DNA from: Patescibacteria group bacterium
Lineage (GTDB): Bacteria > Patescibacteriota > Patescibacteriia > Patescibacteriales > JBAZCA01
Assembly: GCA_041661405.1 (NCBI GenBank)
Contig: JBAZUL010000004.1
Span: 15,309-79,308, forward strand
Length of the DNA stretch: 64,000 nucleotides
Direction: 5' to 3'
The position numbers and the translations under genes were made by a program. Under the pieces are notes generated by a model. That model searched no databases, was not told the DNA's origin, and was given only the letters and a program-made list of their open reading frames with translations. Positions 26,610 to 59,383 of the stretch are shown piece by piece (positions within the stretch are counted from its first letter, which is position 1; each line of letters starts with the position of its first letter).

Positions 26610-26615
26610 AAAATG

Positions 26616-26682: not shown

Positions 26683-26696
26683 TGAGCGAAGCGATT

Positions 26697-28162: not shown

Positions 28163-28218
28163 TTAGTTGATTAGTTAATTGGTTAATTAGGATTGCGTTA
28201 ATAACTAATTAACCAAGG
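28163..28218 (+). repeat. TTAGTTGATTAG word hairpin directly after the rpoA stop
   Basis: TTAGTTGATTAGTTAATTGGTTAATTAGGA differs at 1 of 30 nt from 43991-44020. The right arm is CTAATTAACCAA. Confidence 0.85.
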
Positions 28219-28246
28219 AGCCAGTCCGCAATTTAAATAAATACGT

Positions 28247-28597
28247 ATGAGACACAGGAACAAAAATAAAATACTGGACAGAAAAAAAGCGCCACGGGAG
28301 CTCATGCTCCGCAATCTGGCTTCAAGTATTTTGATTTACGAAAAAGTAAAAACCACCAAAGCCAAGGCCCAGGCAGTAAGGCCGCTTCTTGAGCGGGTGA
28401 TTACTTACGCCAGAAAAAATGACCTGGCTTCTAAAAAAAGGATTATGTCAATTCTGCCGCAAAAAATGGCGGCTAAAAAGGTCATTGAGGTTATCGGCGG
28501 CCGCTATAAGGACCAAAATGGCGGCTACTGCCGGATCGTGAAGCTCGGAGAGAGACAGGGAGACGGCGCCGAAGTGGTGCAGATTGAATTGGTATAA
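28247..28597 (+). CDS. rplQ: Ribosomal protein L17
   Basis: MRHRNKNKILDRKKAPRELMLRNLA, 116 aa, in the canonical position after rpoA. Confidence 0.9.
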   Translation: MRHRNKNKILDRKKAPRELMLRNLASSILIYEKVKTTKAKAQAVRPLLERVITYARKNDLASKKRIMSILPQKMAAKKVIEVIGGRYKDQNGGYCRIVKLGERQGDGAEVVQIELV

Positions 28598-28997: not shown

Positions 28998-29000
28998 GCG

Positions 29001-29060
29001 TTTAGGGTTTAGCGTATAGAGTACAAGAACTAAACTCTGTACGCTGAACCCTATACCCTA
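29001..29060 (+). repeat. 18-bp hairpin between rplM and rpsI with plus-strand-specific G-U pairs
   Basis: GGGTTTAGCGTATAGAGT (29005-29022) pairs with ACTCTGTACGCTGAACCC (29034-29051). The two non-Watson-Crick positions are U-G on the plus-strand RNA and would be A-C on the other strand. Confidence 0.85.
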
Positions 29061-29069
29061 TAAAACATT

Positions 29070-35515: not shown

Positions 35516-37495
35516 CTATTTTACCCCATACTTAAACACGTAATCCTGTCCGTTGCAAAAGGCCTTAAAAGAATCAGCCGAGAGTTTAGCCTCGTCTAAA
35601 ACTTTGGGAAATTCAAACCAGTATTTGTTTAAGACAAAATAGCCGGTTTTAACGTCCGCCAGGTTCATGGCCTTATTTATCCTTACGGCCGTCGGCTTAT
35701 CGTAAACCATGGCTAAATAATACTGGTAAAGCGCGCCGCCGGTCGGAATCGGGTAATTAAAAATTTCTTCGCCGGTTTTCGTTTTTACGTAATTAGTAAA
35801 GCCGAATTCGTAAAGAGCCCCGGCCGAAACCTGCTGGTTGGCAAGGACAATATATTTTTCTCCGGCCGCGTCCGCGTTAATCCACTTTATCGCTTCTAAA
35901 TCACAGGCTCCGGTTGAATAGCCCCGGGAATTAAAATAAGCGTCATAGCGCGGGTAAGAAATATAGAGCGAGGCAATGATAAGAACCGCGAAAAATATCA
36001 GGTTGGAATAAAGGACAAGTCCCGCGGAAGTGGTGATTTTTTTGACATACCAGCCAAAGATTAGAAAAATGAACGGTAGGAGAAACATGAAAGAAAGAAA
36101 TAAAATCCGGTCCGAATAAGCTGAGCGTTCGTAATTTATAAGAAAGCTGAAAGAAAGGGCTTCGGTCAAAAGATAGGAAAAAAAGAGCGAGATTGCCATG
36201 AAAAAATATGCCTGGTATTTTTTAAATCGCTTTTGGTAAATCGCGAAACCGATCCCGGTTAGCGCGATAAGCAGAAAAATTTTTGCTCCGTTTTGGGTGA
36301 TCAAATAGGCAAAATTAAGAAAAATGTTCTCGCGGTTGGGAAAGCTTAAAAAAAGATTAGCCGCGATTGAAGTAAAAATTTCCGAAAGACCGGCAAGGGG
36401 GGTTTCGCGCGGCCCGGCGGTCTGCTTTTCAAAAATATAAAAAGCGGCCGGGAGCGACAAAGCGGACGAGGAGTAAATTAAGAGATAGATATATTTTCTA
36501 AACAACGGCATTAAAATTTTTAATTTTTGCCCGTCTTTCGCGAGATACGCGTGAAGCAGACCAGCCAATGAAAAAAATATGAGCGGCAGACCGGCCAGCG
36601 GATGGATTATAAAGGCGGCCAGCGATAAAAGAAGGAGAAGGAAAAAATCCGCCGGTTTTTTCGCCCGAAGCCCGAGGAGAATGACGATGAGGGCAATAAG
36701 GAAAGCCAGGTTCTGCGGCGTGGTTTGGATTAAAAAAGAAAAGGGAAAGATCAGAAGCAGAGCCGCGGAAAAAACCGGGTTTTCATGGCCTTCGGAGCGG
36801 AAAGTTTTTACGGCCAGGGCGGGTAAGACAAGGGCGGCGAGCGCCGGAACCAGGAAAGTATTTATCCAGCCAAGCGGAATGAAAAATAGTTTATGGAGAA
36901 TTATGGCCAGTCCGTAATAGCCTGAGTAGTAGATGGTTTTCGGCGCGATAAAGCCGGCCGCGCCAATCACTTTCAGGGCGGCGGCGTGGATGAAAGGATC
37001 AAACCCGTAGCCTATTTTGTAAATTATGACGGCGACAGCGAATGAAAGGAAAAAGTGAAAGAAAATAAGTATTATGTATTTTGTATTATGTATTTTGTAT
37101 TTGAAAAATTGAGAAGTCAAGTATATAAGTAATAACGAGGCGAGAAAATAAAATACGAAAAAGTAAGCCGGTATAACCTGCCAGGGCGAGATTATGGCCT
37201 GATTCGTGCGGCTAATAAATAAAGAATAGAAAGCCATTCCCGAAAAGATTAAATAGAGGCTGGCCGGTAAAATGGCTGTGAGCCAGTTTTTCAGGCTGAT
37301 TTTTTTTTCAGCCGGTTCATACAAAGCCGCGAGTTTTTCTTCCCCGAGGACAAAATAGGGAAGAAACTTCCAGCCAAAAGCAATAGTAATGGCGGCGCTA
37401 AGAAAGATTCCGATAGAATCAAGCCGGTAAAAATAATAAACCAGTCCGCTGGAAAGCGATAAAATTGAGACAAAAGCCAGGACTATGTTTAGCAT
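35516..37495 (-). CDS. Polytopic membrane protein with C-terminal soluble domain (possible GT-C-like, unassigned)
   Basis: 659 aa with more than 12 hydrophobic segments. No motif recognised. It contains an exact 14-nt tandem duplication at 37070-37097. Confidence 0.6.
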   Translation of the reverse strand: MLNIVLAFVSILSLSSGLVYYFYRLDSIGIFLSAAITIAFGWKFLPYFVLGEEKLAALYEPAEKKISLKNWLTAILPASLYLIFSGMAFYSLFISRTNQAIISPWQVIPAYFFVFYFLASLLLIYLTSQFFKYKIHNTKYIILIFFHFFLSFAVAVIIYKIGYGFDPFIHAAALKVIGAAGFIAPKTIYYSGYYGLAIILHKLFFIPLGWINTFLVPALAALVLPALAVKTFRSEGHENPVFSAALLLIFPFSFLIQTTPQNLAFLIALIVILLGLRAKKPADFFLLLLLSLAAFIIHPLAGLPLIFFSLAGLLHAYLAKDGQKLKILMPLFRKYIYLLIYSSSALSLPAAFYIFEKQTAGPRETPLAGLSEIFTSIAANLFLSFPNRENIFLNFAYLITQNGAKIFLLIALTGIGFAIYQKRFKKYQAYFFMAISLFFSYLLTEALSFSFLINYERSAYSDRILFLSFMFLLPFIFLIFGWYVKKITTSAGLVLYSNLIFFAVLIIASLYISYPRYDAYFNSRGYSTGACDLEAIKWINADAAGEKYIVLANQQVSAGALYEFGFTNYVKTKTGEEIFNYPIPTGGALYQYYLAMVYDKPTAVRINKAMNLADVKTGYFVLNKYWFEFPKVLDEAKLSADSFKAFCNGQDYVFKYGVK

Positions 37496-37597
37496 AAAGA
37501 TTTGCTAAAATTAGTATAAAATGATAAAATAGTTTTGTCCGCGAGCTGGCGGACAATATTGGAATTTTATCAGTAAAGTTGGTGATTTTTAAGGGTT

Positions 37598-39511
37598 ATG
37601 AAATATAAGCTAGGGAACGGAATAATACTTCTTGCTTTGGCCGTCGGTTTTTTTATTTCCACTGGCGCCTACATCCATCTCTCTCAAAAAGGGGGCTTTT
37701 TAAAATGGGGGTCGCCGGATGAAACCGCCAATTATTATTTTTCCCGCCTTTACGCCCGGGAAGGGAAGTTGTCGGTTTTTGAAAAATATAACCCAAGAGC
37801 CGGGGAAATAATTCATCCCCGGAGTTTCCGGAGCGATTCAGGCGAGCTAAAACCGGTGAGCTTCCTCGGCCTGCCTTTAGTTTACGGCATAATCGGCTCC
37901 TTTACAACCGAAAAAATCATCGGCTATCTTACCCCGTTTTTCGCGGCAATCGGGATAATTTATTATTACTTTTTTTTAAAAATATTTTTTTCCTGCCGCG
38001 TTGCCCTGCTTTCAGCCTCTATTCTTTCGGTTTTTCCGGTGTATTTTTATTACAGCGCCCGGAGCATGTTCCATAATGTTTTATTCATGGTGTTTTTAAT
38101 TGTCGGCTCATATTACGCCGTAATTTCCGTTATTTCGAAAAATACGAAAGGCGCGAAAGAAAACGAAAGGCGCGAAGAGACCAGGGAGGAAAAAAATAAA
38201 ACCGGCAATGGCGCTGAAAAAAATGAAAGGCGCGAAGCGGAAAAGGCGGAAATCGCCGATAACGCTAATAGCGAAGAGCCGAAAATCAAGAAAGGGATTT
38301 GGCCTCTGGTTAAAGGATTGATTTTTGCCGCTTTGGGCGGGCTTTTTATCGGCCTGGCAATTGCCGTCCGGTCTTCGGAACTTTTATGGCTCGGTCCGGC
38401 GCTGTTTATCGCCTGGGCGTTAAACTTTTGGCGTTTCGGATTGGCGCGGCTGGTTATTTTTATATCATTTTTCGCTTTGGCTCTGCTCCCGGTATTTTAC
38501 TGGAACAATATTCTTTACGGTTCGCCGACGAGCGGCGGCTATCCGGCCATGAATGAATCAATCGTCGCTGTAGCCGGGGGCGGCAAAGATTTCGTTAAAT
38601 CAATTCCTGGCCTGGCGAGCGGGGGAACAGGACGAGTCAGAGAGCTCGCCATGACAATTGAAAAAGCTATTTTCAGCTTTGGAATTAATGTTCCCCGGTC
38701 AATAAAAATTTTCCAGCTTTATTTCATAAAAATGTTTTACTGGATTTTTTGGCCAGCGCTCGCGGGCTTACTGCTTTTTGTTCTCAATTTTAAGAAATTT
38801 AAGAAAAAGCATTTTATCTATATCCTTACTTGGATTTTTTTCTCGGCAATATTGGTTTTATATTACGGAAGCTGGGAATTTTACGATAATCCGGATAAAA
38901 ACGCCGCGACCATCGGCAATTCCTACACCCGCTACTGGCTGCCGGTTTATCTCGGCGCCATTCCGTTCGCTTCATACCTGATTTTTAAAATTATTGATTT
39001 ACCAGCGCTGTTAACAGGCCTTTTGGGGAGAATCCATATTTTTAAATCATTAATAGAAGATACCCGGCGGCTCCAAAAAATTTTTCAGGGCTTCCTTTTG
39101 GGACTCGTGATTCTGTCGCTCTTTTACGTGAGCGCTAATTTCACATTGTTCGGCTCGGAAGAGGGTCTCGCGTTCTCTTATTACAAGGGAGTTGCCGCCA
39201 GGCTGGAATACGAAAAAGTCCTCGGACTTACGGAAGCTAACGCGGTAATTCTTACCCGCTACCACGACAAGATATTTTTTCCCGAAAGAAAGGTAATAGT
39301 CGGACTGTTTGACGACCCAAACATGATCGCCGCTTACGCCCGCGTCGCTGAAAATCTTCCCCTGTATTATTATAATTTTACTTACCCGGAGTCCACTGTT
39401 AATTACCTTAATAGCGGCCCTTTGGGAAAAGTGAATTTGAAAATGGAAAAAGTAGAAATGATCACTGATGATTTTACTTTATACAGGTTCAAGCTTACAA
39501 ATCAGAAATAA
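37598..39511 (+). CDS. Polytopic membrane protein, GT39/ArnT-like glycosyltransferase candidate
   Basis: The N-terminal loop GSPDETANYYFSRLYAREGKL...HPRSF...FLGLPLVYG resembles PMT_2/ArnT-family first loops. Multiple TM segments. A charged repeat insert lies at 38143-38240. Confidence 0.5.
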   Translation: MKYKLGNGIILLALAVGFFISTGAYIHLSQKGGFLKWGSPDETANYYFSRLYAREGKLSVFEKYNPRAGEIIHPRSFRSDSGELKPVSFLGLPLVYGIIGSFTTEKIIGYLTPFFAAIGIIYYYFFLKIFFSCRVALLSASILSVFPVYFYYSARSMFHNVLFMVFLIVGSYYAVISVISKNTKGAKENERREETREEKNKTGNGAEKNERREAEKAEIADNANSEEPKIKKGIWPLVKGLIFAALGGLFIGLAIAVRSSELLWLGPALFIAWALNFWRFGLARLVIFISFFALALLPVFYWNNILYGSPTSGGYPAMNESIVAVAGGGKDFVKSIPGLASGGTGRVRELAMTIEKAIFSFGINVPRSIKIFQLYFIKMFYWIFWPALAGLLLFVLNFKKFKKKHFIYILTWIFFSAILVLYYGSWEFYDNPDKNAATIGNSYTRYWLPVYLGAIPFASYLIFKIIDLPALLTGLLGRIHIFKSLIEDTRRLQKIFQGFLLGLVILSLFYVSANFTLFGSEEGLAFSYYKGVAARLEYEKVLGLTEANAVILTRYHDKIFFPERKVIVGLFDDPNMIAAYARVAENLPLYYYNFTYPESTVNYLNSGPLGKVNLKMEKVEMITDDFTLYRFKLTNQK

Positions 39512-40482: not shown

Positions 40483-41292
40483 ATGCGGGAGGGAAACAAT
40501 CAAATCATAATCTACAATAGTGAAGACGGAGAAACTAAGATTGAGGTCAAGATGGAGAATGAGACAGTTTGGCTTAGCCAGAAACAGATGGCCGAGCTTT
40601 TTGATAAAGATGTCAAAACTGTCAATGAGCACATAAAAAATGTGTTTTTTGAGGGAGAATTAGCGGAAAATTCAGTTATCCGGAAATTCCGGATAACTGC
40701 TTCGGACGGGAAAAGTTATGAAACGATGTTTTATAATCTTGACGTTATTATATCTGTCGGTTACCGCGTTAAATCGCATCGCGGCACGCAATTCCGCATC
40801 TGGGCGACGCAAAAATTGCGGGAGTATATAATTAAAGGGTTTGCTATGGACGACGAGCGATTAGCCGGTGGCGGAATAAAGAAGACTTATTTTAATGAAT
40901 GGGAAGAACGGATCAGGAAAATCCGTACTTCGGAAGCTAATTTTTACCAGAAAGTCAGGGACGTATTCGCGACCAGCGTTGACTATAATCCGAAGCTAGA
41001 TTACGCCAGGCGATTCTTCGCGACAGTGCAGAATAAATTCCATTACGCGATTACTGGTTTGACGGCGGCCGAAATTGTCAGCAATCGGATTGATAGCCAA
41101 AAAGAAAATATGGGATTAACGAACTGGAAAGGGGAAATTATTGTCCGCGAGCAGGCGGAAATCGCCAAGAATTACCTTAAAGAGCTGGAACTGAAAAGAC
41201 TGAATTTATTGGTTGAGCAATTTTTATCTTTTGCTGAATTGCAAAGCGTGGAGCAGAGAGTGATGTATATGAAAGACTGGAAAATAAAATAG
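40483..41292 (+). CDS. RhuM-family protein, apparently C-terminally truncated
   Basis: WLSQKQMAELFDKDVKTVNEHIKNVF...YNLDVIISVGYRVKSHRGTQFRIWAT is typical of RhuM. The ORF stops right after MYMKDWKIK, where family members (from memory) continue for roughly 50-60 more residues. Confidence 0.65.
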   Translation: MREGNNQIIIYNSEDGETKIEVKMENETVWLSQKQMAELFDKDVKTVNEHIKNVFFEGELAENSVIRKFRITASDGKSYETMFYNLDVIISVGYRVKSHRGTQFRIWATQKLREYIIKGFAMDDERLAGGGIKKTYFNEWEERIRKIRTSEANFYQKVRDVFATSVDYNPKLDYARRFFATVQNKFHYAITGLTAAEIVSNRIDSQKENMGLTNWKGEIIVREQAEIAKNYLKELELKRLNLLVEQFLSFAELQSVEQRVMYMKDWKIK

Positions 41293-41314
41293 TCCAACTC
41301 TAACAGATAATTTT

Positions 41315-41650
41315 ATGCAATTTTTAGTTATTGGTAAAGACGGAAAAGATAAAAATGCCATGAAGAGAAGAATGTCTTCAAGAGAAGCGCATATTAAATT
41401 CGGGGACGAAATGGAAGCTTTAGGTAATAGATGGTATGGTTGTGTAATGCTGGATGACAATAGTAAAATGATTGGATCTATGGCGGTAATGGATTTTCCC
41501 ACGGAGAGAGAGTTTAAAAAATGGTTAAAAAAAGAGCCGTATGTTACTGGTAAGGCATGGAAAAAGATTGAAGTTTTTAAGTGTAATGTTAAAAGGCCTT
41601 GGAAATTCAATAGGCCTGAATCATTTTTTGAAAATAGAAATAAAGTATGA
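41315..41650 (+). CDS. YciI-like protein
   Basis: MQFLVIGKDGKD...RREAHIKFGDEM...GSMAVMDFPTEREFKKWLKKEPYV matches the YCII fold pattern. The stop overlaps the next start (ATGA). Confidence 0.65.
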   Translation: MQFLVIGKDGKDKNAMKRRMSSREAHIKFGDEMEALGNRWYGCVMLDDNSKMIGSMAVMDFPTEREFKKWLKKEPYVTGKAWKKIEVFKCNVKRPWKFNRPESFFENRNKV

Positions 41651-42891
41651 TCTTTACCGGATTTTCGCCAAATTTAACAGGAAGGGACGCGCTTAAAGCT
41701 TTGGGCTGGCTTTTTTTGCCATGGAACTGGAAAAAGCTGGCCAAAGGCGGAAACGTGGAAAAAGCGGAAAGAGAATTGGAAAAATATTTTGGCGTAAAAA
41801 ATGCCCTGGCTTTTGACAGCGGGCGGACAGCCTTGTATTTTGCTTTGAAGGCGCTGGATGTGAAACAAGGCGACGAAGTCTTGGTTCAGGCGTTTACCTG
41901 TGTGGTCGTGGCGAACGCCATAAGATGGACGAGAGCCAAACCGGTGTATGTTGACGCAAGGGATGACTTTAATATGGATCCGGAAGATCTCCAAAAGAAA
42001 ATTTCACCTAAAGCCAAAGTTATAATTATTCAACACACTTTTGGTTTGCCGGCGGACATGGAAAAAATTATGGCTTTGGCGGATAAATATGGCTTGCGCG
42101 TGGTTGAAGACTGCGCTCATAGCTTTGGGGCAAGACATGGCGGGCGGTTAACCGGAACCATCGGCGATATCGGCATGTTTTCTTTCGGTAGCGACAAAAT
42201 TTTATCCTGCGGCCGGGGTGGGGCGCTCATAACCGACAACGCGGAACTTTATCAAAAGCTAAAACAATATCAGTCCGGACTGGAACCGCTCACAGGGAAA
42301 GACATAACCCGGCATCTTTTGCATTTTCCGGTTTTTTATATCGGCAAACCTTTATATGGGTTATTTATCGGCAAAGCTGTATTGTGGCTTGCGAAAAAAA
42401 TGTATTTCGTGAACCGGATTATCACACAGAAGGAAAAAACTGGCGAAAAAGATGAATTATTCGGTCGGCTTTTGCCGAACGCATTGGCCGGCATATTGCT
42501 CGGCCAGCTTAAAGATGTTGACAGTATGAATAAACAAAGAAGAAAGACCGCCGCTTTGTATGACACTGAAATTTCGGAAAAGATTGAAAGACCGCTCGTT
42601 AAAGCCGCGAATAAGGATGAATGCGTTTATCTGCGTTATCCGATTTTAACTGACCGGCCGAAAGAATTGATGAAGGACGCGAAAAGGCATAAAATAATTC
42701 TAGGGGACTGGTATGATTCGGTTATCGCGCCGCGGGATTTAAGAATGGATAAGACCGGATATGAAAAGGGTAGCTGTCCAAGAGCCGAATTACTGTCAGA
42801 GCGAATCGTAAATTTACCTACTGACAGGAATGTGAACGAGAAAAAAGCGCGGAGAGTGGCGGAAGTTGTTAATAGATGGGTTAATGGGTGA
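41647..42891 (+). CDS. DegT/DnrJ/EryC1/StrS-family PLP aminotransferase
   Basis: FDSGRTALYFALKAL, VVEDCAHSFGA and FSFGSDKILSCGRGGALIT (PLP lysine). Confidence 0.8.
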   Translation: MIFTGFSPNLTGRDALKALGWLFLPWNWKKLAKGGNVEKAERELEKYFGVKNALAFDSGRTALYFALKALDVKQGDEVLVQAFTCVVVANAIRWTRAKPVYVDARDDFNMDPEDLQKKISPKAKVIIIQHTFGLPADMEKIMALADKYGLRVVEDCAHSFGARHGGRLTGTIGDIGMFSFGSDKILSCGRGGALITDNAELYQKLKQYQSGLEPLTGKDITRHLLHFPVFYIGKPLYGLFIGKAVLWLAKKMYFVNRIITQKEKTGEKDELFGRLLPNALAGILLGQLKDVDSMNKQRRKTAALYDTEISEKIERPLVKAANKDECVYLRYPILTDRPKELMKDAKRHKIILGDWYDSVIAPRDLRMDKTGYEKGSCPRAELLSERIVNLPTDRNVNEKKARRVAEVVNRWVNG

Positions 42892-42926
42892 GTATTTTGG
42901 TATTCGTTTTTACATTAATTGAATTC

Positions 42927-43994
42927 ATGCCTATAAAAATAAAACCAATCACTGACGAAAAATCCTGGCAAGATTTTGAGAAGATTCGCGCGCCGCATAC
43001 TTTTCTGCAAACCTGGGAATGGGGAGCCGCGCAGGAGCTTCTTGGCAATAAAATTTTTCGGCTGGGGATTTACGGCAACGGCAAAATTCAGGGAACCGCT
43101 TTTGCTTATAAAATCAGCGCCCGGCGGGGATCGTTTTTGTTCTGTCCGCACGGCCCGTCAATTGACTGGAAATGCTCTGAATTTCCGCAAAATACGAAAA
43201 AAACAAAATACGAAAATTTTGATAATTTTCGGGCGCTGGCCGGTTATTTGCGCGAACTGGGAAAAAGCGAGAGAGTGGGATTCGTTCGGATTAGTTCGCT
43301 GGCTCCGGATAATGATGACATGAAAAAACTTTTTCGGGATTCCGGTTTTATTTCGGCGCCGGTTCATATGATGCATCCGGAAAACGCCTGGATCCTTGAT
43401 ATTGACCGGCCGGAAGAAGAAATAATCGGCGCCATGAAAAAAAGAACCCGCTATTCAATCCGCAAAGCGGAAAAAGACGGCATAAAAATTACGACATCAG
43501 CCAATCCGGCCGACGTGAGGCTATTTTATGAAATGTATCTTGAAACCGCCAGACGGCAGAAATTCGTCCCGTTTTCGGAGAGCTATATCCGGCGCGAATT
43601 TGAAATATTCCGGAAAAATAATAAAGCCCTGATGTTTTTTGCTTATTTTAAAGGGAAACTCATTTCCGCGGCTGTAATTATTTTTTCTTCTAAAATGGCT
43701 TTTTATCATCACGGCGCTTCAATCCGGTCGGATAATTCCGGCCTCACGGCCTCGGAATTACTGCAATGGAACGTCATCCTTGAAGCCCGGCACCGGGGAC
43801 TCGCTAGCTATAATTTTTGGGGCATCGCGCCGGAGAATTGCCCGAAACATCCTTGGCACGGTTTGACAACTTTTAAAAAAGGTTTTGGAGGACATCCGGA
43901 AAATTATCTGCACGCCCAAGACCTTGTAATTTCGCCGAAATATTGGTTAAATTACATAGTGGAAACGGTAAGACGGTGGAAGAGGGGATATTAG
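42927..43994 (+). CDS. FemAB/FemX-family aminoacyl-tRNA-dependent peptidyl/aminoacyl transferase
   Basis: FLQTWEWGAAQE, MKKRTRYSIRKAEKDGI, YHHGAS, LQWNVILEARHRG..YNFWGI and TTFKKGFGG motifs. The ATG at 42927 is preferred over the GTG at 42888. Confidence 0.8.
   Translation: MPIKIKPITDEKSWQDFEKIRAPHTFLQTWEWGAAQELLGNKIFRLGIYGNGKIQGTAFAYKISARRGSFLFCPHGPSIDWKCSEFPQNTKKTKYENFDNFRALAGYLRELGKSERVGFVRISSLAPDNDDMKKLFRDSGFISAPVHMMHPENAWILDIDRPEEEIIGAMKKRTRYSIRKAEKDGIKITTSANPADVRLFYEMYLETARRQKFVPFSESYIRREFEIFRKNNKALMFFAYFKGKLISAAVIIFSSKMAFYHHGASIRSDNSGLTASELLQWNVILEARHRGLASYNFWGIAPENCPKHPWHGLTTFKKGFGGHPENYLHAQDLVISPKYWLNYIVETVRRWKRGY
43188..43218 (+). repeat. 16-nt-period AAAATACGAAAA word repeat translated inside femX-like CDS
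   Basis: CAAAATACGAAAAAAACAAAATACGAAAATT differs at 1 of 31 nt from the intergenic 51560-51590. Here it encodes QNTKKTKYENF. Confidence 0.9.
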
Positions 43995-44074
43995 TTGATT
44001 AGTTGATTGGTTAATTAGGAAAAATATATTAACCAACCAACTAATTAACTAATCAACCAATTAACCAATTAACT
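43991..44074 (+). repeat. TTAGTTGATTAG word hairpin spanning the femX-like stop to the next ATG
   Basis: The left arm TTAGTTGATTAGTTGATTGGTTAATTAGG contains the TAG stop (43992-43994). The right arm is TTAACCAACCAACTAATTAACTAATCAACC. Confidence 0.85.
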
Positions 44075-45289
44075 ATGTTTGAGCGAACAAAAGATCTAAA
44101 ACTCTCGGTAATCAAGCAGATGGAATTAAAGGCGGCGAAAATCCCCGACGTGATATCACTCGCTCAGGGCGTGCCGAGCTTTGACACTCCGCAGTTCATA
44201 AAAAGGCGGGTGGAAAAAGAATTGAAAAATCAGGTAATTTCAAAATATTCGCTCTCGCCCGGGATGATGGAACTGCGGGAGCTTTTTGAGGCGCATCTGG
44301 CTAAGGAAAACATGCATTACGACTGGGAAACGGAGATTCTTGTTACGGTCGGAGCGATTGAAGCGCTAACCGCGACTATCCTGGCGCTTACCATGCCCGG
44401 CGATGAAATTCTCGTTCCTGAGCCGGCTTATACTTCCTATCGCGAAGTGATTACCCTTGCCGGATGCAATCCGGTTTACGCGCCGTTAAACGAAGAAAAA
44501 GACTGGGGGCTTGAGATGGCTGAAATTGAAAATGCCATCACCCCGAAAACCAAAGCCATAATCTATTCCAACCCTTCCAATCCGACCGGGACGATTTTCT
44601 CCAAATCTCAACTTTTAGAACTCGTGGAATTCGTAAAAAAACACGATATTTTCCTTATTACCGACGAGCTTTACAAGGATTTTGTTTTTGATCCTTCCTA
44701 CCTTGAAAACGGCCGGCTCTTTTCGGTCGCCGAGATTCCTGAGATCCGGGAAAAGGTAATCCGAATTTTTAGCCTCTCAAAATTATTCGCCATGACTGGC
44801 TGGCGGGTCGGCTTTCTCCATAGCGACGCCAAAAACGTCAAGGAGATTTTAAAAGTCCATGACTGCCTTGTTACTTGCGCGCCGGTAATTTCCCAGGTCG
44901 CGGCTATGGGCGCACTTGAGGGTTGCGAGGAAAATATTACTAATTTTAACGTTGAATTCCAGAAACGTCGGGATCTGATCTGCGCGCGACTTGATAAGCT
45001 CGCCAAATATTTCAGTTACGCCAAGCCTCAGGGAGCCTATTATATTTTCCCGAAAATTAAACCTGAGGCTTTTCCAAAAATGAAAAAGGCCGTAAATTCA
45101 AAAGGCGCGGAAGTGATTGATTCATGGGAATTTTGCGTTGATCTCCTGGAAAAAGCCAAAGTCGGCACTGTTCCCGGGTTTGCTTTTGGGCCATCAGGCG
45201 AAGGGCATTTCCGAATGAATTTTGCCAAGAGCGAGGAAAACATCAATGACGCTTTTGACCGGATAGAAAAATACTGTGAGAATCAATAA
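44075..45289 (+). CDS. Class I/II PLP aminotransferase (aspartate/aromatic-type)
   Basis: LAQGVPSFDTP, NPSNPTG, and SLSKLFAMTGWRVGF (SxSK lysine). Confidence 0.8.
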   Translation: MFERTKDLKLSVIKQMELKAAKIPDVISLAQGVPSFDTPQFIKRRVEKELKNQVISKYSLSPGMMELRELFEAHLAKENMHYDWETEILVTVGAIEALTATILALTMPGDEILVPEPAYTSYREVITLAGCNPVYAPLNEEKDWGLEMAEIENAITPKTKAIIYSNPSNPTGTIFSKSQLLELVEFVKKHDIFLITDELYKDFVFDPSYLENGRLFSVAEIPEIREKVIRIFSLSKLFAMTGWRVGFLHSDAKNVKEILKVHDCLVTCAPVISQVAAMGALEGCEENITNFNVEFQKRRDLICARLDKLAKYFSYAKPQGAYYIFPKIKPEAFPKMKKAVNSKGAEVIDSWEFCVDLLEKAKVGTVPGFAFGPSGEGHFRMNFAKSEENINDAFDRIEKYCENQ

Positions 45290-45350
45290 ATCAATCTACA
45301 ATTTGCAACGGCTTATTAATTGATAATTGTAGATTGAAGATTGACTTATT
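45290..45350 (+). repeat. TCAATCTACAATT word hairpin directly after the stop
   Basis: TCAATCTACAATT pairs perfectly with AATTGTAGATTGA. The right side continues AGATTGA as in 25990-26010. Confidence 0.85.
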
Positions 45351-45356
45351 GATCCA

Positions 45357-45431
45357 AGGGCTTGTAGTACAGTGGTAGTACGCCGCATTCGCATTGCGGA
45401 GACGGGAGTCCGATTCTCCCCAAGTCCACCA
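45357..45431 (+). tRNA. tRNA-Ala(CGC)-like gene with encoded CCA and non-canonical features
   Basis: Hand-folded cloverleaf: D stem GTAC/GTAC with GG in the loop; anticodon arm CCGCA-TTCGCAT-TGCGG (anticodon CGC); T arm GGGAG-TCCGATT-CTCCC; 3' end CAAGTCC-A-CCA. The acceptor 5' strand reads GGGCCTTG. That gives either a C3-U70 mismatch, or G3-U70 with a bulged C. The T loop has C at position 55. Confidence 0.7.
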
Positions 45432-45445: not shown

Positions 45446-47077
45446 CTAAATATCGCAAACCAGGTTGCCGAGCTCTTCGGAAAAAACTTCAAAATTTAAA
45501 GAGTAGTCAACCGGAACGTCAATCACGGTTAATTTGTTTGACAAAAGCGCTTCGCGGAGCAGTCCGTCAAATTCTCCGGCTTTGGTTACTTTCATGCCGA
45601 CGGCGCCGTAGCTTTCGGCGTATTTTTTAAAATCAGGGTTGCCGAGATCCATGCCGAAATCCGCGAGTTTCATATTTTTTTGCTTCCATTTTATAAAGCC
45701 GTAAGCGTCGTCGCGGATTATGACAACCACGACCGAAATCTTATTGCGCAGGGCGGTTTCCAGTTCCTGCGAATTCATCATAAACCCGCCGTCGCCGACC
45801 ACGGCGACGACTTTTTTTTCAGGATAAACCAATTTGGCGGCAATGGCGGCGGGCAGTCCGGCGCCCATGGTCGCGAGCGCGTTATCAAGAATCAGGGTGT
45901 TCCGCCCGTAAGTTTTATACATCCGGGAAAACCAAAGTTTATAAATCCCGTTATCAAGCGTAACAATATCTTCCTTTCTAAGGGCGTTTCGCGCGGATTG
46001 GACGATCTCGGGAGGAGTGAGCGGGAATTTTTTTTCCGCTAAGGCCATAGTTTTTTCTTCAATGAGCGCGCGGGTTTTTCTAAAACGGGGAAAATCCCTT
46101 TTGGGGATAAGGGATGAAAGTTCATGGAGCGCGCCCGAAACATCGCCGATAATTTCAACATCCGGGTTGAAATATTTATCCGGTTCAGCCGGGGAAAAAT
46201 CAATATTGATTATTTTTTTTTGAAGTTCCCGGTTCCAGACAAAAGGCGGATATTCCACTATGTTGTAGCCGATAGTGATGATGAGATCAGCCGCGTCAAT
46301 GCCGCAATTAACATAATCCCGGCGGTGCATGCCGGTGGAAAACAGACTAAAAGGAGAATCATCGGAAAGGACGCCTTTGCCCATCTGGGTATGCACGGCG
46401 TAGATGCCGGTTTTTTCCGTAAAAGATGATAAATTCGGCGTGATATTTTTCCGGTTGGCGCCGGAGGAGAGGATGATGAGGGGATTTTTCGCCCAATTAA
46501 TCATTTCCGCCGCCTGCCGGAGCGCCTCCGTGTCCGGAGCTGGTTGCCTTGGCTCATGCCTTGTCTGGATCAGCGCGCCGGTTTCTTCTTCAGCGACATC
46601 TTCAGGCAGTTCAATGTGGACGGCGCCGGGCCGTTCGTCTTCGGCCAGTTTAAAAGCGGTCCGCAGTCCGGTCGGTATGGCGCCGGGATCAATGATGGAA
46701 AAAGATTTTTTGGTTATCGGCCGCATCAGCGAAACAACGTCAACCATCTGGAATTTTGCCTGCCAGTTTTCTTTTATCGCTTTTTGGCCGGAAATCGTTA
46801 TAAGCGGCGCGCCGGTAAGCTGGGCGTGGGCTACCCCGGTTACGAGATTCGCGGCGCCCGGCCCGAGAGTGGAAAGCGCTACTCCGGCCCGGCCGGTAAG
46901 CCGGCCGTAAGTCGCGGCCATGAAAGCGGCGGCCTGTTCATGCCGGGTAACAATGAACTTAATTTTTGAATTCCTTATGGCTTCCATGAGCGCCAGGTTT
47001 TCTTCGCCCGGCAGACCGAAAATATATTCCACCCCTTCTTCTTCCAGTTGTTTTACGAATAATTCTGAAGCCTTCAT
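45446..47077 (-). CDS. Thiamine-diphosphate enzyme, acetolactate-synthase-like
   Basis: The N-terminal TPP-pyrimidine domain is GLPGEENLALMEAI...RHEQAAAFMAATYGRLTGRAGVALSTLGPGAANL. The C-terminal TPP motif is VVGDGGFMMNSQELET. Confidence 0.8.
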   Translation of the reverse strand: MKASELFVKQLEEEGVEYIFGLPGEENLALMEAIRNSKIKFIVTRHEQAAAFMAATYGRLTGRAGVALSTLGPGAANLVTGVAHAQLTGAPLITISGQKAIKENWQAKFQMVDVVSLMRPITKKSFSIIDPGAIPTGLRTAFKLAEDERPGAVHIELPEDVAEEETGALIQTRHEPRQPAPDTEALRQAAEMINWAKNPLIILSSGANRKNITPNLSSFTEKTGIYAVHTQMGKGVLSDDSPFSLFSTGMHRRDYVNCGIDAADLIITIGYNIVEYPPFVWNRELQKKIINIDFSPAEPDKYFNPDVEIIGDVSGALHELSSLIPKRDFPRFRKTRALIEEKTMALAEKKFPLTPPEIVQSARNALRKEDIVTLDNGIYKLWFSRMYKTYGRNTLILDNALATMGAGLPAAIAAKLVYPEKKVVAVVGDGGFMMNSQELETALRNKISVVVVIIRDDAYGFIKWKQKNMKLADFGMDLGNPDFKKYAESYGAVGMKVTKAGEFDGLLREALLSNKLTVIDVPVDYSLNFEVFSEELGNLVCDI

Positions 47078-47096
47078 GAGTTAATTTTTTACATTT

Positions 47097-48464
47097 TTAA
47101 TTATTCACAACAATTGTTTTAACATTAACGAATTCCTTTAATCCGTAATGGGACAGTTCCCGTCCGACGCCGGAATTTTTTACTCCGCCAAAAGGCAGGC
47201 GCGGGTCGGATTTTACCATATCATTAATAGAGATGAATCCGGCATCAATTTTAGCGGCGATTCTTTCCGCTTTCTCAATATTTTCGCTCCAGACTGAAGC
47301 CCCGAGACCGTATTCAGTCGCATTGGCGATCTGTATGGCTTCTACTTCGGTTTTTACGATTATAACCGGAGCGATTGGCCCGAAAACCTCTTCGTTCATT
47401 ATTCTCATCCGGCTGTCGGCGCCGGCGACAATGACCGGGCGAAAAAAGAAACCCTTGGCAGATTTTATTTCCGGACCCCAAAAAGCCTTTCCGCCCAAAG
47501 CGAGCGAATCGTTAAGCTGCCTCTCTAAAAGTTCAACAAAGCGCTCTTGGGCGAGCGGCCCGATGTCGGTCGCCGGATCCATGGGGTCGCCGGTGTTCAA
47601 TTTCAAAAGATTTTCCCTGAATTTTTCCAGGAAGCCGACCGCCGCTTTTTCCATGACAATAAATCTTTTAGCGGCGATACAGCTTTGCCCGGCGTTAACA
47701 AATCTTGATTTAACAGCGAATTTGGCGGCGCGGGAAATGTCCGCGTCTTCCAAAACCAGAAAGGGGTCTGACCCGCCGAGTTCAAGCACGGCTTTAATTA
47801 TTTTCTTACCGGCCAGCGCGCCGATTTGGGAGCCGGCGCGGTTTGATCCGGTGAGCGACACGCCGTCAACTTTATTGTCTTCAATAAGCTTCATGGCCGC
47901 GGCTTCGTCTATAAGCAGGGCGCGGAAAGCATGTTCCGGGAGTCCGGCTTCTCTCATAAGTTTTTCAATGGCCAGGGCGGAGATTGGAACGCTTGGGGCG
48001 TGTTTTAATAAAACCGTATTGCCGACGGCTAAAGCGGGTATTGCAAAACGGAAAACCTGCCAGAAAGGGAAGTTCCAGGGCATGATAGCGAGTATTACTC
48101 CAAGAGGCTCAAAGGAAGCGTAAGATTTTTTCGCTTCGGTCGGAATTATTTCCGGCTGGAGGAATTTTTCCGCGTTGTCACCGTAATAATCGCAGACCAG
48201 CGCGCATTTTTCTATTTCCGCGGCAGACTCTTTTATCGGTTTTCCCATTTCCTTCGTGATTAGGGCGGAAAAATGATTTTTGTTTTTTATTAGCAGGCGG
48301 CCGATATTTTTAATAATCGCAACCCTTTGACCCTGGGTTGTTAATTTCCAGCGGACGAATTCTTTTCTTGATTCAGTGACAATAGTCTCAATTTCCCGGC
48401 CAGAGTAATTTTCAAACTCAGCGTTAATTTCTTCGGTAAAAGGATTAATAGAAGTCATTTTCAT
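47097..48464 (-). CDS. NAD(P)-dependent aldehyde dehydrogenase (succinate-semialdehyde dehydrogenase-like)
   Basis: LELGGSDP, NAGQSCIAAKR (catalytic Cys) and EEVFGP motifs. Confidence 0.85.
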   Translation of the reverse strand: MKMTSINPFTEEINAEFENYSGREIETIVTESRKEFVRWKLTTQGQRVAIIKNIGRLLIKNKNHFSALITKEMGKPIKESAAEIEKCALVCDYYGDNAEKFLQPEIIPTEAKKSYASFEPLGVILAIMPWNFPFWQVFRFAIPALAVGNTVLLKHAPSVPISALAIEKLMREAGLPEHAFRALLIDEAAAMKLIEDNKVDGVSLTGSNRAGSQIGALAGKKIIKAVLELGGSDPFLVLEDADISRAAKFAVKSRFVNAGQSCIAAKRFIVMEKAAVGFLEKFRENLLKLNTGDPMDPATDIGPLAQERFVELLERQLNDSLALGGKAFWGPEIKSAKGFFFRPVIVAGADSRMRIMNEEVFGPIAPVIIVKTEVEAIQIANATEYGLGASVWSENIEKAERIAAKIDAGFISINDMVKSDPRLPFGGVKNSGVGRELSHYGLKEFVNVKTIVVNN

Positions 48465-48542
48465 AATAGAAGTGAGTGAACCCCGCGTTATGCGGGACGA
48501 GCGAGCATAGTATTGGATTAAAATTGCGCGAAAAAATAAACA

Positions 48543-48570
48543 TTTATAAAGATTATTTAAAGTATGTCAA
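48543..48570 (-). promoter_or_regulatory. Candidate promoter of the ALDH/TPP operon
   Basis: On the minus strand: TTGACA (48570-48565), 16-nt spacer, TATAAA (48548-48543). Confidence 0.4.
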
Positions 48571-48689
48571 AGCGCGATTAAGCAATGATTAAGGAGCTTT
48601 GCCGGATTGCTGATAATAGCGCGTATCTGCTATTTACCGGCAGAAGAGGGAAAAAATAGAGTAAAACGGCTACCAAACATAGCTCATGA

Positions 48690-48718
48690 TTGACAAAATC
48701 ATGCATTTATGCTAGAAT
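48690..48718 (+). promoter_or_regulatory. Candidate promoter of the 933-aa protein gene
   Basis: TTGACA (48690-48695), 17-nt spacer, TAGAAT (48713-48718), 30 nt before the ATG. Confidence 0.6.
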
Positions 48719-48748
48719 GATTAGTCTAGTGCTAAAAATATCAATTTT

Positions 48749-51550
48749 ATGCAAAATTATTTAAAGTTAGCCAAAAAATATTCACGAAAAAGAAGCGCCA
48801 GTTTGCTTGAATGGCACAGTAATGCGCTTGCGGTCATTTTTAAGCTAGCTTTCTTCGCTTTAACCCTGGGGTTGTCATTTAATGCTTTTTCTTTTGACGT
48901 TTCAGCCTCAAGCGGACTTAGCGCTGATATAAAGCAGGTAAAAACCGCAAATAGCGCGACTGTTTATTATCTTGACCACGCGCGCGCCCTGAAAAAAGCT
49001 TATGTTTCAGCTGAGTCATATTTGTCCTACGGAAACCGTTGGTCAGATATTAAGATTATATCCCCAGAAAAATTGGCTTTATGGAAGGACGCCGAATTAA
49101 TTAAAGCCGCGGGCAATGCCGGAGTTTATTACATCCGCGACGGAAAAAAAGCGCTTATCAGGTCTGAGAAAGAATTTATCGGACTGGGCTTTAACTGGAA
49201 TGATATTATTACGCTTTCCGCGATTGATTTCAATTCTTATAAAGAAACCGGCTTGAGCGAGCTTTACACTTCTTCCGTCAACAAAATTTCGGCTGAGGAA
49301 TCTCGGACGGATTATTCCGGACTTGGAGTTTATCTTGATTCAATGAGTCCTAAAGAAGGCTATGCCGTGATTAACACCAGGGATAACCTGGCGGCGGTTT
49401 TTGATCTAATTTCCCGTTCAGAAAAAACCATAACAATAAAAAGTTTTTCTTTTGACCTCAAAGGCGTGTATTCGGACGACCTCGTAAAAGATATTTACCT
49501 TGCCAATGACGCTGGCGTAAAATACGAAAATTTCATCGCCAACCGGATTGGGCACAAAGTAACATTCAGTTTTAGGAACCCCGGCTTGGCGCTTGCTCCC
49601 GGAGAAGTAAAAAAAATATCCGTCTATATTGACCTCGGCGGTTCAAAAACCAACGAAGGCCAGGCTTACCAGGTTGCCATGGAAAATACCGGCTATGTTT
49701 TTGCTGATTGTCCGGTAGCCGGAGGATTTCCCCTTGTCTCAGCGCGCCAAAAAATTCTTATCGGCGATGGTGTATTGGGAAAACTTCGGGCTGACGAAGA
49801 AAGCCTCAGCGGCTATAACAAGCGGGCGGTTATCGGGTCAACCGACCAGCCGATAATTAAGTTCAGCCTGAAAGAACTGACTAAAAATGAAGATCTGGCC
49901 GTAAAAAAAATAACTTTCACCAGCTTCGGTTCAACCGGGCCGGACATGATAAAGAATTTTAAGCTGAAAAACAGTTCTGGCAAAATTATCGCGCAGACCG
50001 CGGCGCTTAATGAGGATAATAAGCTATATTTCAACGTCAGCGATTACATAATCAGCAAAGACTCAAAAGAAACGTTTTTGGTGACGGCCGATATTGTTGA
50101 CGGCGAAGAAAAAACTTTTGATTTTAATATCCTTGAAGTTAAAGTCTCAGACAGAAATACCGGCCTCGGTCTTTCGGCCGATATTTATAATATTGACGAG
50201 AGCCAGACCATAAAAAGAGAATATATCGGAGTAATCGCCAAGGATTTAAAAACCAATACCAAGGTTTTTTCAAAACAAAAAGGCGTGATTGTCGGCAATT
50301 TTGAGATAAGGAATAATAATAAAAAAATCACCCTGCAGAGCCTTGAATTTGAACTGCAAAAAAATTCATCTGCTCCGCGGATTGAGGCCACGGTTTACCT
50401 CGTTAATTACGCCACGGGCGAAATTTACGGACACGCCGAAGGGATAGAGCTTAGCGCCGGACCGGCTGTCATAAACATGGTTCCGGTCAAGATGGAAGCG
50501 AAAAAAAGCCTAACCGTAACGCTAATTACTGATATTCCAAAGGATACATCGGCCGGAGATTATTACCTGGCCATTCTGAACAAAATAAATTACGAATCAG
50601 AAAACGGCGCTCATTACAGCGATTCGGTGAAGGCGCCGGGCGCAAAATTGAATGTAACGAGTTCCGGGCTGTATGTTTACCCGAACCACGAACTGGAAGG
50701 GCTTACTTATATTAAGGGCGAAGGCGGAGTAACTGTCGCGAATTTTATTCTTGAAGCCTCGTCCGGCGAGGATATTGTCATTAACGGGATTACTGTCGCG
50801 CAGGGCGAGACTTCGGGAGCGATAACTTACGATAACGGTTTTTCAGGACTCCGGGCGTATATCAACGGAAAACGGGCAGGCCAGGTTATTTACGAGCCGA
50901 CCGGAGCCACTTTCGCTTTAAGCGGTTTCAACTATGTCCTTAAAAACGGCAGCCGGGTTAAGCTCATTATCGTCGCTGACACGACGCGCGACTTAAGGGT
51001 ATCGGAAACCCAAATGGCTTTAAGCGAACTGATCGCCGTTGGCTATAAGTCGGGAATTCCGACCAGCGCCGCGGGGCTTCCCAGCCAAAGCTATCCGGTA
51101 TTCTTTGACATCACCGCGCTGGATGTTGCTGCGGTGAATGGCGGAGCCGCTATACTGGATTCGGACAATAACCTTGTCGCCAGCTTCAGCGTTGCTAACT
51201 TAGGGATTGAAGATATCAGGTTAAGACAAATTGAAATAACCACCTCTGACGCCGGATTCACCTCAAGTTTAGGGTTTTATAACTTGAGAATCGCTGAAAA
51301 AGCGTCCGGCCGCAAGCTGGGAAGCGTTAGCCGTCCGGTCGCCGGAGCCAACGTGGTTTCCATGGGAAATATCACCGTTAAAGCCGGAGAAAAATTATAC
51401 TTTGACGTTTATGTTGATACTGACGGCCGGGTTTTAGCCGGAAGTTTCCAAGTGTATTTTAACGTCCTCAGGGCTGAGGGCGCGGTATCGCGGCTATCGC
51501 CCGACATAACCGGCGACCCGACCGATCCGGTCACGGTAACGGTGAATTAA
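48749..51550 (+). CDS. Large membrane-anchored extracellular repeat protein (Ig-like beta-sandwich repeats), unknown function
   Basis: 933 aa. There is an N-terminal TM anchor (LAFFALTLGLSFNAF), then two VYY(L/I)xD...W.DI motifs, then repeated units of about 90-100 aa. No family recognised. Confidence 0.65.
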   Translation: MQNYLKLAKKYSRKRSASLLEWHSNALAVIFKLAFFALTLGLSFNAFSFDVSASSGLSADIKQVKTANSATVYYLDHARALKKAYVSAESYLSYGNRWSDIKIISPEKLALWKDAELIKAAGNAGVYYIRDGKKALIRSEKEFIGLGFNWNDIITLSAIDFNSYKETGLSELYTSSVNKISAEESRTDYSGLGVYLDSMSPKEGYAVINTRDNLAAVFDLISRSEKTITIKSFSFDLKGVYSDDLVKDIYLANDAGVKYENFIANRIGHKVTFSFRNPGLALAPGEVKKISVYIDLGGSKTNEGQAYQVAMENTGYVFADCPVAGGFPLVSARQKILIGDGVLGKLRADEESLSGYNKRAVIGSTDQPIIKFSLKELTKNEDLAVKKITFTSFGSTGPDMIKNFKLKNSSGKIIAQTAALNEDNKLYFNVSDYIISKDSKETFLVTADIVDGEEKTFDFNILEVKVSDRNTGLGLSADIYNIDESQTIKREYIGVIAKDLKTNTKVFSKQKGVIVGNFEIRNNNKKITLQSLEFELQKNSSAPRIEATVYLVNYATGEIYGHAEGIELSAGPAVINMVPVKMEAKKSLTVTLITDIPKDTSAGDYYLAILNKINYESENGAHYSDSVKAPGAKLNVTSSGLYVYPNHELEGLTYIKGEGGVTVANFILEASSGEDIVINGITVAQGETSGAITYDNGFSGLRAYINGKRAGQVIYEPTGATFALSGFNYVLKNGSRVKLIIVADTTRDLRVSETQMALSELIAVGYKSGIPTSAAGLPSQSYPVFFDITALDVAAVNGGAAILDSDNNLVASFSVANLGIEDIRLRQIEITTSDAGFTSSLGFYNLRIAEKASGRKLGSVSRPVAGANVVSMGNITVKAGEKLYFDVYVDTDGRVLAGSFQVYFNVLRAEGAVSRLSPDITGDPTDPVTVTVN

Positions 51551-51559
51551 AACACTCTA

Positions 51560-51590
51560 CAAAATACGAAAAGAACAAAATACGAAAATT
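51560..51590 (+). repeat. Intergenic copy of the AAAATACGAAAA 16-nt-period repeat
   Basis: 30 of 31 nt identical to 43188-43218. Confidence 0.9.
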
Positions 51591-51594
51591 AATT

Positions 51595-51626
51595 AAAACG
51601 TCCCGTAAGTACGGGACGTTTTAATT
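51595..51626. terminator. Bidirectional terminator between the 933-aa gene and clpB
   Basis: AAAACGTCCCGTAAGTACGGGACGTTTT is a perfect palindrome flanked by an A-run and a T-run. Confidence 0.8.
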
Positions 51627-51671
51627 TTAGTAGTTGGTTCCGAGAACTCGGGATTTGTATTTTGTGGATTT

Positions 51672-54299: not shown

Positions 54300-54302
54300 A
54301 AA

Positions 54303-54388
54303 TAAGTTATAAAGTTATAAAGTAAAAAGTTTAAAGTATTATATTTATACTTTTAGCCTTATACTTTATAACTTTAAACTTTATAACT
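54303..54388. repeat. GTTATAAAG / CTTTATAAC word hairpin in the clpB leader
   Basis: AGTTATAAAGTTATAAAGTAAAAAGTTTAAAGTAT opposes ATACTTTATAACTTTAAACTTTATAACT. Confidence 0.8.
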
Positions 54389-54401
54389 ATAAAAACATTA
54401 T

Positions 54402-59276: not shown

Positions 59277-59286
59277 ATTTAGAAAA

Positions 59287-59375: not shown

Positions 59376-59383
59376 GTAAAAAC

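Follow-up and report, generated by a model that had tools for sequence, protein, structure and literature searches.

Rickettsia palindromic elements (RPEs) are palindromic sequences of 100-150 bp that occur in tens of copies per genome, both between genes and in frame within housekeeping genes. They are reportedly the subject of Ogata et al. 2000, ‘Selfish DNA in protein-coding genes of Rickettsia’. A related arrangement is described here for a stretch of 64,000 nucleotides (the window) from a Patescibacteria group bacterium (assembly GCA_041661405.1, contig JBAZUL010000004.1, positions 15,309 to 79,308 of the forward strand). A tract of 31 nt (the 31-mer) lies inside a gene for a FemX-like transferase of the FemAB family (copy 1) and recurs with a single mismatch in the spacer between the gene of a 933-amino acid (aa) protein and that of ClpB (copy 2). 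Judged from comparative sequence, the pair appears to be a recent ectopic copy of an array of two short tandem units, or words. As with the RPEs, one short repeat is found both between genes and in frame, where it gives a tolerated, surface-exposed extra peptide. In contrast to them, the tract shared here is not palindromic, and the coding site appears to have been overwritten and not newly inserted. An RPE-like element was rejected on the grounds of the 31-nt length, the two known copies, and an RNA fold of the FemX region around copy 1 that is not significant (z = -1.7).

Repetitive extragenic palindromic (REP) sequences, bacterial interspersed mosaic elements (BIMEs) and terminator-carrying miniature inverted-repeat transposable elements (MITEs) such as the Correia elements are short palindromic modules of spacers. 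The window resembles them in its intergenic hairpin modules, which are possible terminators and include some near-identical dispersed copies (28162/43990, 30/31; 25981/45322, 27/31). However, the modules here are mostly locus-specific tandem words that fill the interval from stop to start codon and are wholly replaced between close relatives, and no consensus family, terminal inverted repeats or transposase could be recognised.

Templated mutagenesis, which includes quasi-palindrome and direct-repeat correction, microhomology-mediated insertion and ectopic short-patch conversion, is known mainly from the mutation spectra of model organisms. The likeness to the present case is threefold: clustered substitutions without a change in length yield a perfect repeat, an insertion is flanked by duplicated microhomology, and only the copied tract is shared. 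The difference is that the process is read here from comparative sequence alone.

The tandem repeats of Borgs are A-rich, fast-evolving and recent, and are found between genes as well as in open reading frames (ORFs), where they form disordered segments, often of membrane or extracellular proteins (PMC9879509). Partial repeats are viewed as their seeds, the mechanism being unknown, and they are defined as perfect head-to-tail units with a total of at least 50 nt and, in ORFs, a unit length divisible by 3 (PMC9879509). The arrays of the window are likewise A-rich, fast-evolving, and both genic and intergenic. They differ in their units, which number 2-6, are imperfect and have lengths of 7-16 nt not divisible by 3, in the palindromes of the spacers, and in one array being shared between distant loci. 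The 31-mer was rejected as a Borg-type repeat, having 1.9 units of 16 nt that agree with each other at 13/16 positions.

RPEs, Borg repeats, REP/MITE palindromes and template-switch mutagenesis are thus the nearest described phenomena, and the architecture of the spacers is the more interesting lead. The 31-mer alone is a small evolutionary footprint: a tract was transferred between a gene and a terminator, and the enzyme was left with an additional but harmless loop. The greater value of the 31-mer is the spacer architecture that it exposes, in which short tandem words form hairpins in this lineage of the Candidate Phyla Radiation (CPR) and apparently in several other CPR classes. The phenomenon may also serve as a natural system for the study of template-switch mutagenesis.

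The 31-mer pair and the FemX insertion

Copy 1 of the 31-mer (CAAAATACGAAAAAAACAAAATACGAAAATT) occupies 43188-43218 and copy 2 occupies 51560-51590, both on the plus strand. They match at 30/31 positions, the sole mismatch being at position 14, with A in the coding copy 1 and G in the non-coding copy 2. Copy 1 is built of units that start at 43188 and 43204 with a period of 16 nt, CAAAATACGAAAA followed by AAA and CAAAATACGAAAA followed by TT. The boundaries of the copies are sharp and their flanking sequences are unrelated. A third, single-unit exact match of 15 nt, AAAATACGAAAATTT (K-Y-E-N-F), is located at 49519-49533 (+) within the 933-aa gene, a site at which relatives encode KYEDF (AAAATATGAAGACTT). 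The 31-mer contains no stop codon in any frame, whereas most of the other spacer words checked carry 1-3 per frame. This may explain why the word is tolerated inside a gene.

The identity of the two copies supports recent copying over convergent low complexity, as the original prediction had proposed from the same pair of sites and the same period. None of 100 dinucleotide shuffles of the window gave a match to the 31-mer at three or fewer mismatches. In Markov simulations (n = 60, orders 3 and 5), in which the best 31-nt window was scored for each dispersed repeat pair, the best pair reached 26/31. The real window holds 11 dispersed pairs at 26/31 or better, compared with 0.1-0.2 expected, and the 31-mer pair ties for the top. 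The GC content of the window is 41-54% (about 45%), so extreme AT-rich low complexity does not explain the 31-mer. An independent assembly from the ENA (L176, 99.97% identical over 22.8 kb) carries both copies unchanged, which excludes an assembly artefact.

An origin by chance, from A-rich low complexity combined with the codon usage of K, Y, E and N, or by faulty assembly, is therefore held to be highly improbable. It draws some support from the 11-mer AAAATACGAAA, which is the most frequent of the window (8 copies, all on the plus strand, produced by AAA-TAC-GAA codons), and from the (GAAAATAC)n microsatellites common in public data. Against it stand the shuffles, the simulations (0/60 reached the observed identity), the sharp boundaries, the second assembly and the in-frame position of the insertion that contains copy 1.

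Copy 1 lies in a gene at 42888-43994 (+), with a likely true start at the ATG of 42927, for a FemX-like transferase that forms peptidoglycan bridges. Membership of the FemAB family was judged by a score above the gathering threshold of PF02388 or PF13480 together with homology to structures of FemX or lipid II:glycine glycyltransferases. The ORF matches PF02388 with an E-value of 7.7e-28 (97.9 bits, cut-off 24), and among PDB entries the protein matches 6snr (2.6e-11) and the FemX structures 1ne9 and 4ii9 (about 1e-4). It has 2084 homologues, the source names of which point to the Patescibacteria (CPR), and an exact look-up of the 368-aa gene call found it not on record. The tract is read in frame as QNTKKTKYENF, in agreement with the translation and family first proposed for it. 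As the FemX gene runs on in frame and orthologously through copy 1, the attachment sites (attL/attR) of an integrated island were ruled out as a description of the pair.

The surrounding segment is an insertion relative to the orthologues, a point that the original prediction had raised. It comprises 42 nt or 14 aa (FPQNTKKTKYENFD, F99-D112, at 43182-43223 on the plus strand), is lineage-specific and is missing from 20/20 aligned homologues. The syntenic relative L001, with a FemX gene of 81% nucleotide identity, has a clean 42-nt gap at the site. In the AlphaFold model of FemX, the mean predicted local distance difference test (pLDDT) score is 88.5 and falls below 50 at residues 97-103, just before the helix of residues 104-127. 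This insertion loop is the only low-confidence surface loop of the model besides the N-terminus. Copy 1 thus occupies a dispensable loop, and it is most probably carried by FemX as a neutral passenger.

The age of the two copies can be gauged from relatives. The 90% cluster of the FemX protein contains two closer relatives, represented at the DNA level by L177-L180, with FemX genes of 92-94% nucleotide identity. These have an insertion of the same length, in which unit 2 (CAAAATACGAAAATT) and the sequence downstream are identical to the window. Their unit 1 is CGAGATTCAAAAGAAG, which differs at 6/16 positions without an indel and encodes FPRDSKEAKYENFD. Five of the six differences are nonsynonymous. 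Across FemX, the proportions of synonymous (pS) and nonsynonymous (pN) differences between the window and L177 are 0.161 and 0.036.

The relatives L177-L180 are without copy 2 although unit 2 is present in their FemX genes. The orthologous spacer between the 933-aa gene and ClpB (933|ClpB) in L177 has 152 nt, with GAAGTNA words that flank a different hairpin, and that of L001 is a simple palindrome of 32 nt running from one stop codon to the other. Both are unrelated to the spacer of the window. A search for closer lineages by way of the 933-aa protein turned up only the L177 type.

The insertion and half of the 31-mer are older than the identity of the two copies, since L177-L180 share unit 2 and not unit 1. 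The observation named in the original prediction as telling against recent copying, namely a FemX segment kept in orthologues that lack the intergenic copy, is accordingly true of unit 2, one half of the 31-mer, while unit 1 differs. The copies differ at 1/31 positions, compared with about 5 differences expected under neutrality (pS 0.161) if they were as old as the split from L177. This indicates that the transfer is younger than that split.

Three clustered synonymous single-nucleotide polymorphisms separate the FemX genes of the window and L176 at 43706-43712 (TATCATCAC vs TACCACCAT). They account for half of all differences between these near-identical sequences, and at least two are L177-like alleles. 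The cluster suggests a short patch of allelic conversion, and short-patch recombination thus appears to be active in FemX. No variation in the copy number of arrays was seen among near-identical strains.

The spacer between the DegT and FemX genes (DegT|FemX) reads GTATTTTGGTATTCGTTTTT at 42892-42911, about 290 nt upstream of copy 1, and consists of inverted CAAAATAC / ACGAATAC words. In L177 and L001 it holds inverted words of the GAAGTTA family, and in L177 the same family fills the 933|clpB spacer. It may therefore be that both spacers change their word family together.

Copy 2 and the terminator spacer

The 933-aa ORF ends at 51550 and the convergent ClpB gene at 51672; between them lies a spacer module of 121 nt (51551-51671), at which the sequences of relatives are unrelated. 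The 933-aa protein has no Pfam domain, and some of its more distant homologues are annotated in their source as M23 peptidases. Copy 2 begins 9 nt past the stop codon. It is followed by a perfect hairpin of 16-17 bp at 51591-51626, AATTAAAACGTCCCGTA-ag-TACGGGACGTTTTAATT, which has T-rich tails on both strands and stands between convergent genes, as expected of a bidirectional intrinsic terminator. The location proposed for copy 2, non-coding and just before such a predicted terminator, was thus borne out. A second, smaller terminator-like hairpin, GGTTCCGAGAACTCGGGATT, with a T-rich tail is found at 51636-51655 (+). The module is closed by a right arm, TTTGTATTTTGTGG at 51654-51667 (+), which is an inverted CAAAATAC word.

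The predicted fold of the 121-nt spacer has an energy of -44.9 kcal/mol (z = -7.6). In this fold, the right arm pairs with 51556-51569, where copy 2 has its first word. Copy 2 provides an A-rich upstream arm for the transcript of the 933-aa gene, and its complement forms the U-rich tail of the terminator on the ClpB side. Copy 2 thereby belongs, as one of the two arms, to a terminator module of palindromic word repeats, a type of spacer that is common in the window and present in several other CPR genomes.

The 9-nt sequence AATTAAAAC is present on the plus strand both at 51545-51553, where it includes the TAA stop codon of the 933-aa gene, and at 51591-51599, where it is the left half of the terminator stem. 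The chance of such a direct repeat flanking copy 2 is about 0.003. Copy 2 with 6 nt of filler (51554-51590) and the second AATTAAAAC amount to an apparent insertion of 46 nt; no donor of the 6-9-nt filler was found within the window. Deletion of the 46 nt would leave a hairpin that starts at the stop codon, as in L001, which is the pattern expected when an insertion enters a terminator that was already there. From its sequence, copy 2 looks like a 46-nt insertion into a pre-existing terminator.

In L001, GTGAATTAA forms the end of the 933-aa gene and also that of ClpB (19077-19126), and the 32-nt spacer with both stop codons is one perfect palindrome. In the window, the frame of copy 2 relative to the upstream ORF is that of copy 1 in FemX, with a reading after the TAA of N-T-L-Q-N-T-K-R-T-K-Y-E-N-stop. 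A shared frame would arise by coincidence in 1 of 3 cases.

The direct repeat around copy 2 could be taken as the target duplication of a tiny, non-autonomous MITE-like element inserted at both sites, the more so as both sites are empty in L001 and other spacer modules are dispersed at 27-30/31. Such an element is nevertheless unlikely, and is placed marginally below the selective explanation given next. The ends of the 31-mer (CAAAATAC... and ...GAAAATT) do not form inverted repeats. Copy 1 has no flanking duplication, and its site was already occupied by an insertion of the same length in relatives. Two full copies are known, both in the 64 kb of the window, and no transposase is present among its annotated ORFs. 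No copy within 3 mismatches was found in 185,579 species-representative genomes, and viral contigs gave no match.

Selection might instead keep the 31-mer at both sites, either because a protein or small RNA recognises it in two cell-wall genes and so couples them, or through antisense action, the RNA of read-through at the ClpB terminator being complementary to the FemX mRNA at 30/31 positions. The link to the cell wall comes from the peptidoglycan bridges built by FemX and the M23 annotation of some homologues of the 933-aa protein. In favour of selection, each copy lies in sense orientation in a transcript related to the cell wall, the third 15-nt match is within the 933-aa gene, and the complement of copy 2 is directly downstream of the terminator hairpin of ClpB. 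TACGAAA arrays also recur in CPR palindromes, though those loci were chosen for containing the word. However, neither copy is conserved even in relatives with FemX genes of 92-94% identity, the FemX copy has no significant RNA structure, and the antisense sequence lies past a strong terminator. Both the shared-site and the antisense forms are accordingly regarded as unlikely.

Direction and mechanism of copying

The sequence of events considered slightly better than evenly probable begins with an overwrite in FemX and ends with the copying of the 31-mer into the terminator of the 933-aa gene. In the lineage of the window, a templated copy of the 13-nt word would have overwritten, with no change in length, the 16 nt that precede the older unit 2 of FemX. 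The resulting 31-mer and 6 nt of filler would then have been copied into the terminator, through a switch of template during replication or a templated insertion primed by microhomology, and this would have duplicated the 9-nt AATTAAAAC. The mechanism is most likely template switching during replication or short-patch conversion, and the direction of copying is probably from FemX to the spacer. More generally, tandem words of 7-16 nt may arise in this genome, spread between loci and be replaced rapidly in spacers and tolerant loops, while the length and hairpin architecture are preserved.

Several points weigh against this order of events. The comparison covers the window plus some 20 kb of each relative, and no enzyme or intermediate of the copying was observed. 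The clustering in unit 1 (6 changes in 16 nt) is only moderately stronger than neutral change would give (P about 0.05), with one more comparable cluster in FemX and 99 across 17 kb of alignment. Parsimony leaves the ancestral unit 1 of FemX undecided, as L177 and L180 are sisters and the outgroup is without the insertion. Furthermore, arrays of tandem words are characteristically found in spacers, and this would point to the spacer as the donor.

The reversed direction is a possible but rather doubtful alternative. In this case, the spacer array would have been the donor, and short-patch ectopic gene conversion anchored on the 15-nt unit 2 would have overwritten unit 1 of FemX. The change of 6/16 positions without a change in length is what conversion predicts, a single conversion tract covers all six differences, position 16 included, and word arrays are the normal content of spacers. 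On the other hand, unit 2 is old in FemX and the spacer copy is confined to the lineage of the window, so the word must have reached the spacer first from FemX or from an unseen third copy. Copy 2 bears the signature of an insertion in its flanking duplication, and the homology on the left side of the tract would be only a few bases. A MITE-like element, a selected motif or antisense RNA, and chance are each less likely than copying from the spacer to FemX.

The annotated ORFs of the window include no reverse transcriptase, transposase, integrase, Nop or Cas protein. A diversity-generating retroelement, with its pair of template and variable repeats (TR/VR), was rejected for lack of a reverse transcriptase among these ORFs and for a tract of 31 nt vs about 100 nt or more. 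Differences in such a pair should be confined to adenines of the template; here the non-coding copy has G where the coding copy has A, and one of the six FemX differences is at a G. The remaining differences at adenines are attributable to the A-richness of the tract. CRISPR arrays and arrays of the TIGR architecture (as described in PMC12045711) were also rejected, as there is one palindrome per spacer between housekeeping genes, arrays of several units are absent, and the annotated ORFs include neither a Nop-domain nor a Cas protein.

Word arrays in spacers, protein loops and other CPR genomes

Most short spacers of the window are hairpin palindromes with arms of tandem 7-8-nt words, each with its own word or small family of words. 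They are found at 25415-25506, 25900-26018, 26610-26683, 28160-28246 and 28998-29069, and further at 43990-44074, 45290-45356, 54300-54400 and 59277-59380. The eight that were folded gave z-scores of -3.7 to -7.6. In addition to the two dispersed pairs of modules given above, 6836 and 59319 match at 27/31. Searched with Rfam 15 at the gathering score, the window gave a tRNA at 45358-45428 as its sole match, and the spacers and the 31-mer matched no known RNA family.

Between relatives, the architecture persists but the words themselves appear to be exchanged completely. The spacer between FemX and the aminotransferase gene is a word palindrome in 4/4 genomes, with four unrelated words (43995-44074 in the window, 11063-11168 in L177, 1144-1233 in L180 and 11021-11136 in L001). 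The words differ even between L177 and L180, the FemX genes of which are 96.5% identical, and the flanking genes of strains with complete word turnover are 94-96% identical. Spacers that bear promoters are conserved among the relatives (37496-37597 and the 3′ part of 48465-48748).

The same turnover of words seems, from the alignments, to affect a loop of a 659-aa membrane protein. In the window, this loop holds an array of 2.4 units of 14 nt with 100% matches (sense CAAAATACATAATA) at 37069-37101 on the minus strand. A different array of 7/14-nt words is present in each lineage (37060-37110 in the window, about 5230-5290 in L177 and about 5200-5260 in L001). In the 637-aa gene, GAAAGGCGCGAA is repeated three times from 38145. 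It underlies a tandem expansion of 22 aa (AKENERREE...AEKNERREA) in a charged loop encoded by 38136-38260, relative to L177 and L001. The original prediction had listed words at these two places as related to the 31-mer. The words do exist, but their kinship as copies of it was not upheld: they share with the 31-mer at most a core of 8-9 nt (CAAAATAC) or ACGAAA, and are separate, lineage-specific arrays in variable loops of membrane proteins.

Beyond this genome, a loose tandem-word pattern was found at 55 loci among the 185,579 species-representative genomes. Among the metagenome matches listed and the genomes, it gave only the generic (GAAAATAC)n microsatellites. At 5/9 CPR loci vs 0/46 non-CPR loci (Fisher P = 3.6e-5), a TACGAAA array is the left arm of a palindrome whose right arm consists of TTTCGTA repeats; the search pattern did not select for palindromic context, although the loci were selected for containing the word. 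The CPR loci include Moranbacteria, Saccharibacteria, Parcubacteria and others. Palindromic-word loci in CPR were recorded as L121, L137, L150, L158 and L168, and also as L131 and the metagenome locus L013. A full-text literature search found no description of word-palindrome spacers in CPR, which is not proof of absence.

It is tentatively suggested that CPR run a so far undescribed, templated word-array process, with wholesale replacement of spacer words, copying of modules between loci and occasional overwriting of tolerant protein loops. Such a process, if it exists, might fill spacers with palindromes of 7-16-nt tandem words and keep their length and hairpin architecture. The loops overwritten could be those of FemX, the 659-aa membrane protein and possibly RsmH. 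The process would be a lineage-specific source of terminator turnover and of fast diversification of surface loops, with the 31-mer as a case caught in the act. If general, it bears on the termination and processing of transcripts in reduced genomes, the rate at which non-coding DNA evolves, the way in which membrane and surface proteins gain disordered segments, and the handling of such regions by metagenome assemblers and aligners.

A second pair of coding and spacer sequences, which is only suggestive, involves the RsmH gene. Its array of 7-nt words, ENSKLKVQSLKLEN (17056-17088, in the region 17045-17090), matches the spacer between rpsK and rpsD (26610-26683) in inverted orientation at 28/31 positions, or at 30/33 when aligned by eye. 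At these codons, relatives have a different word array (AAAAATT x4), and the helix encoded there is ancestral.

Further observations concern the spacers. Word palindromes also occur within the rpsM-rpsK-rpsD-rpoA-rplQ operon, and often span the interval from a stop codon to the next start codon, with no obvious Shine–Dalgarno sequence. Other pairs of dispersed modules are 25474 and 28162 (inverted) and 15763 and 21722, and dispersed copies overall match at 27-30/31. The whole spacers 28162-28249 and 43990-44077, each running from stop to start codon, are 70% alike. A GC-rich hairpin in an ORF with a TsaD domain (15551-16102) matches the spacer 21696-21754 at 29/31.

Gene content also differs around the 31-mer loci. 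A RhuM-family and a YCII-family gene (40483-41650), between a transglutaminase-like gene and DegT, are missing in the syntenic L177 and L001. The segment therefore has the appearance of a short insertion specific to this lineage, 1.2 kb upstream of FemX. In the interval that separates the aminotransferase/tRNA from the 933-aa gene, the window (45446-48464) and L177 carry genes for a thiamine pyrophosphate (TPP) enzyme and an aldehyde dehydrogenase, where L001 (12619-15842) has two unrelated genes (609 aa, and a glycoside hydrolase-like protein of 467 aa). Lastly, an ORF for an AbiEii-family toxin (14746-15405) is located in a gene-poor region (14218-15405) among genes of the cell envelope and division.

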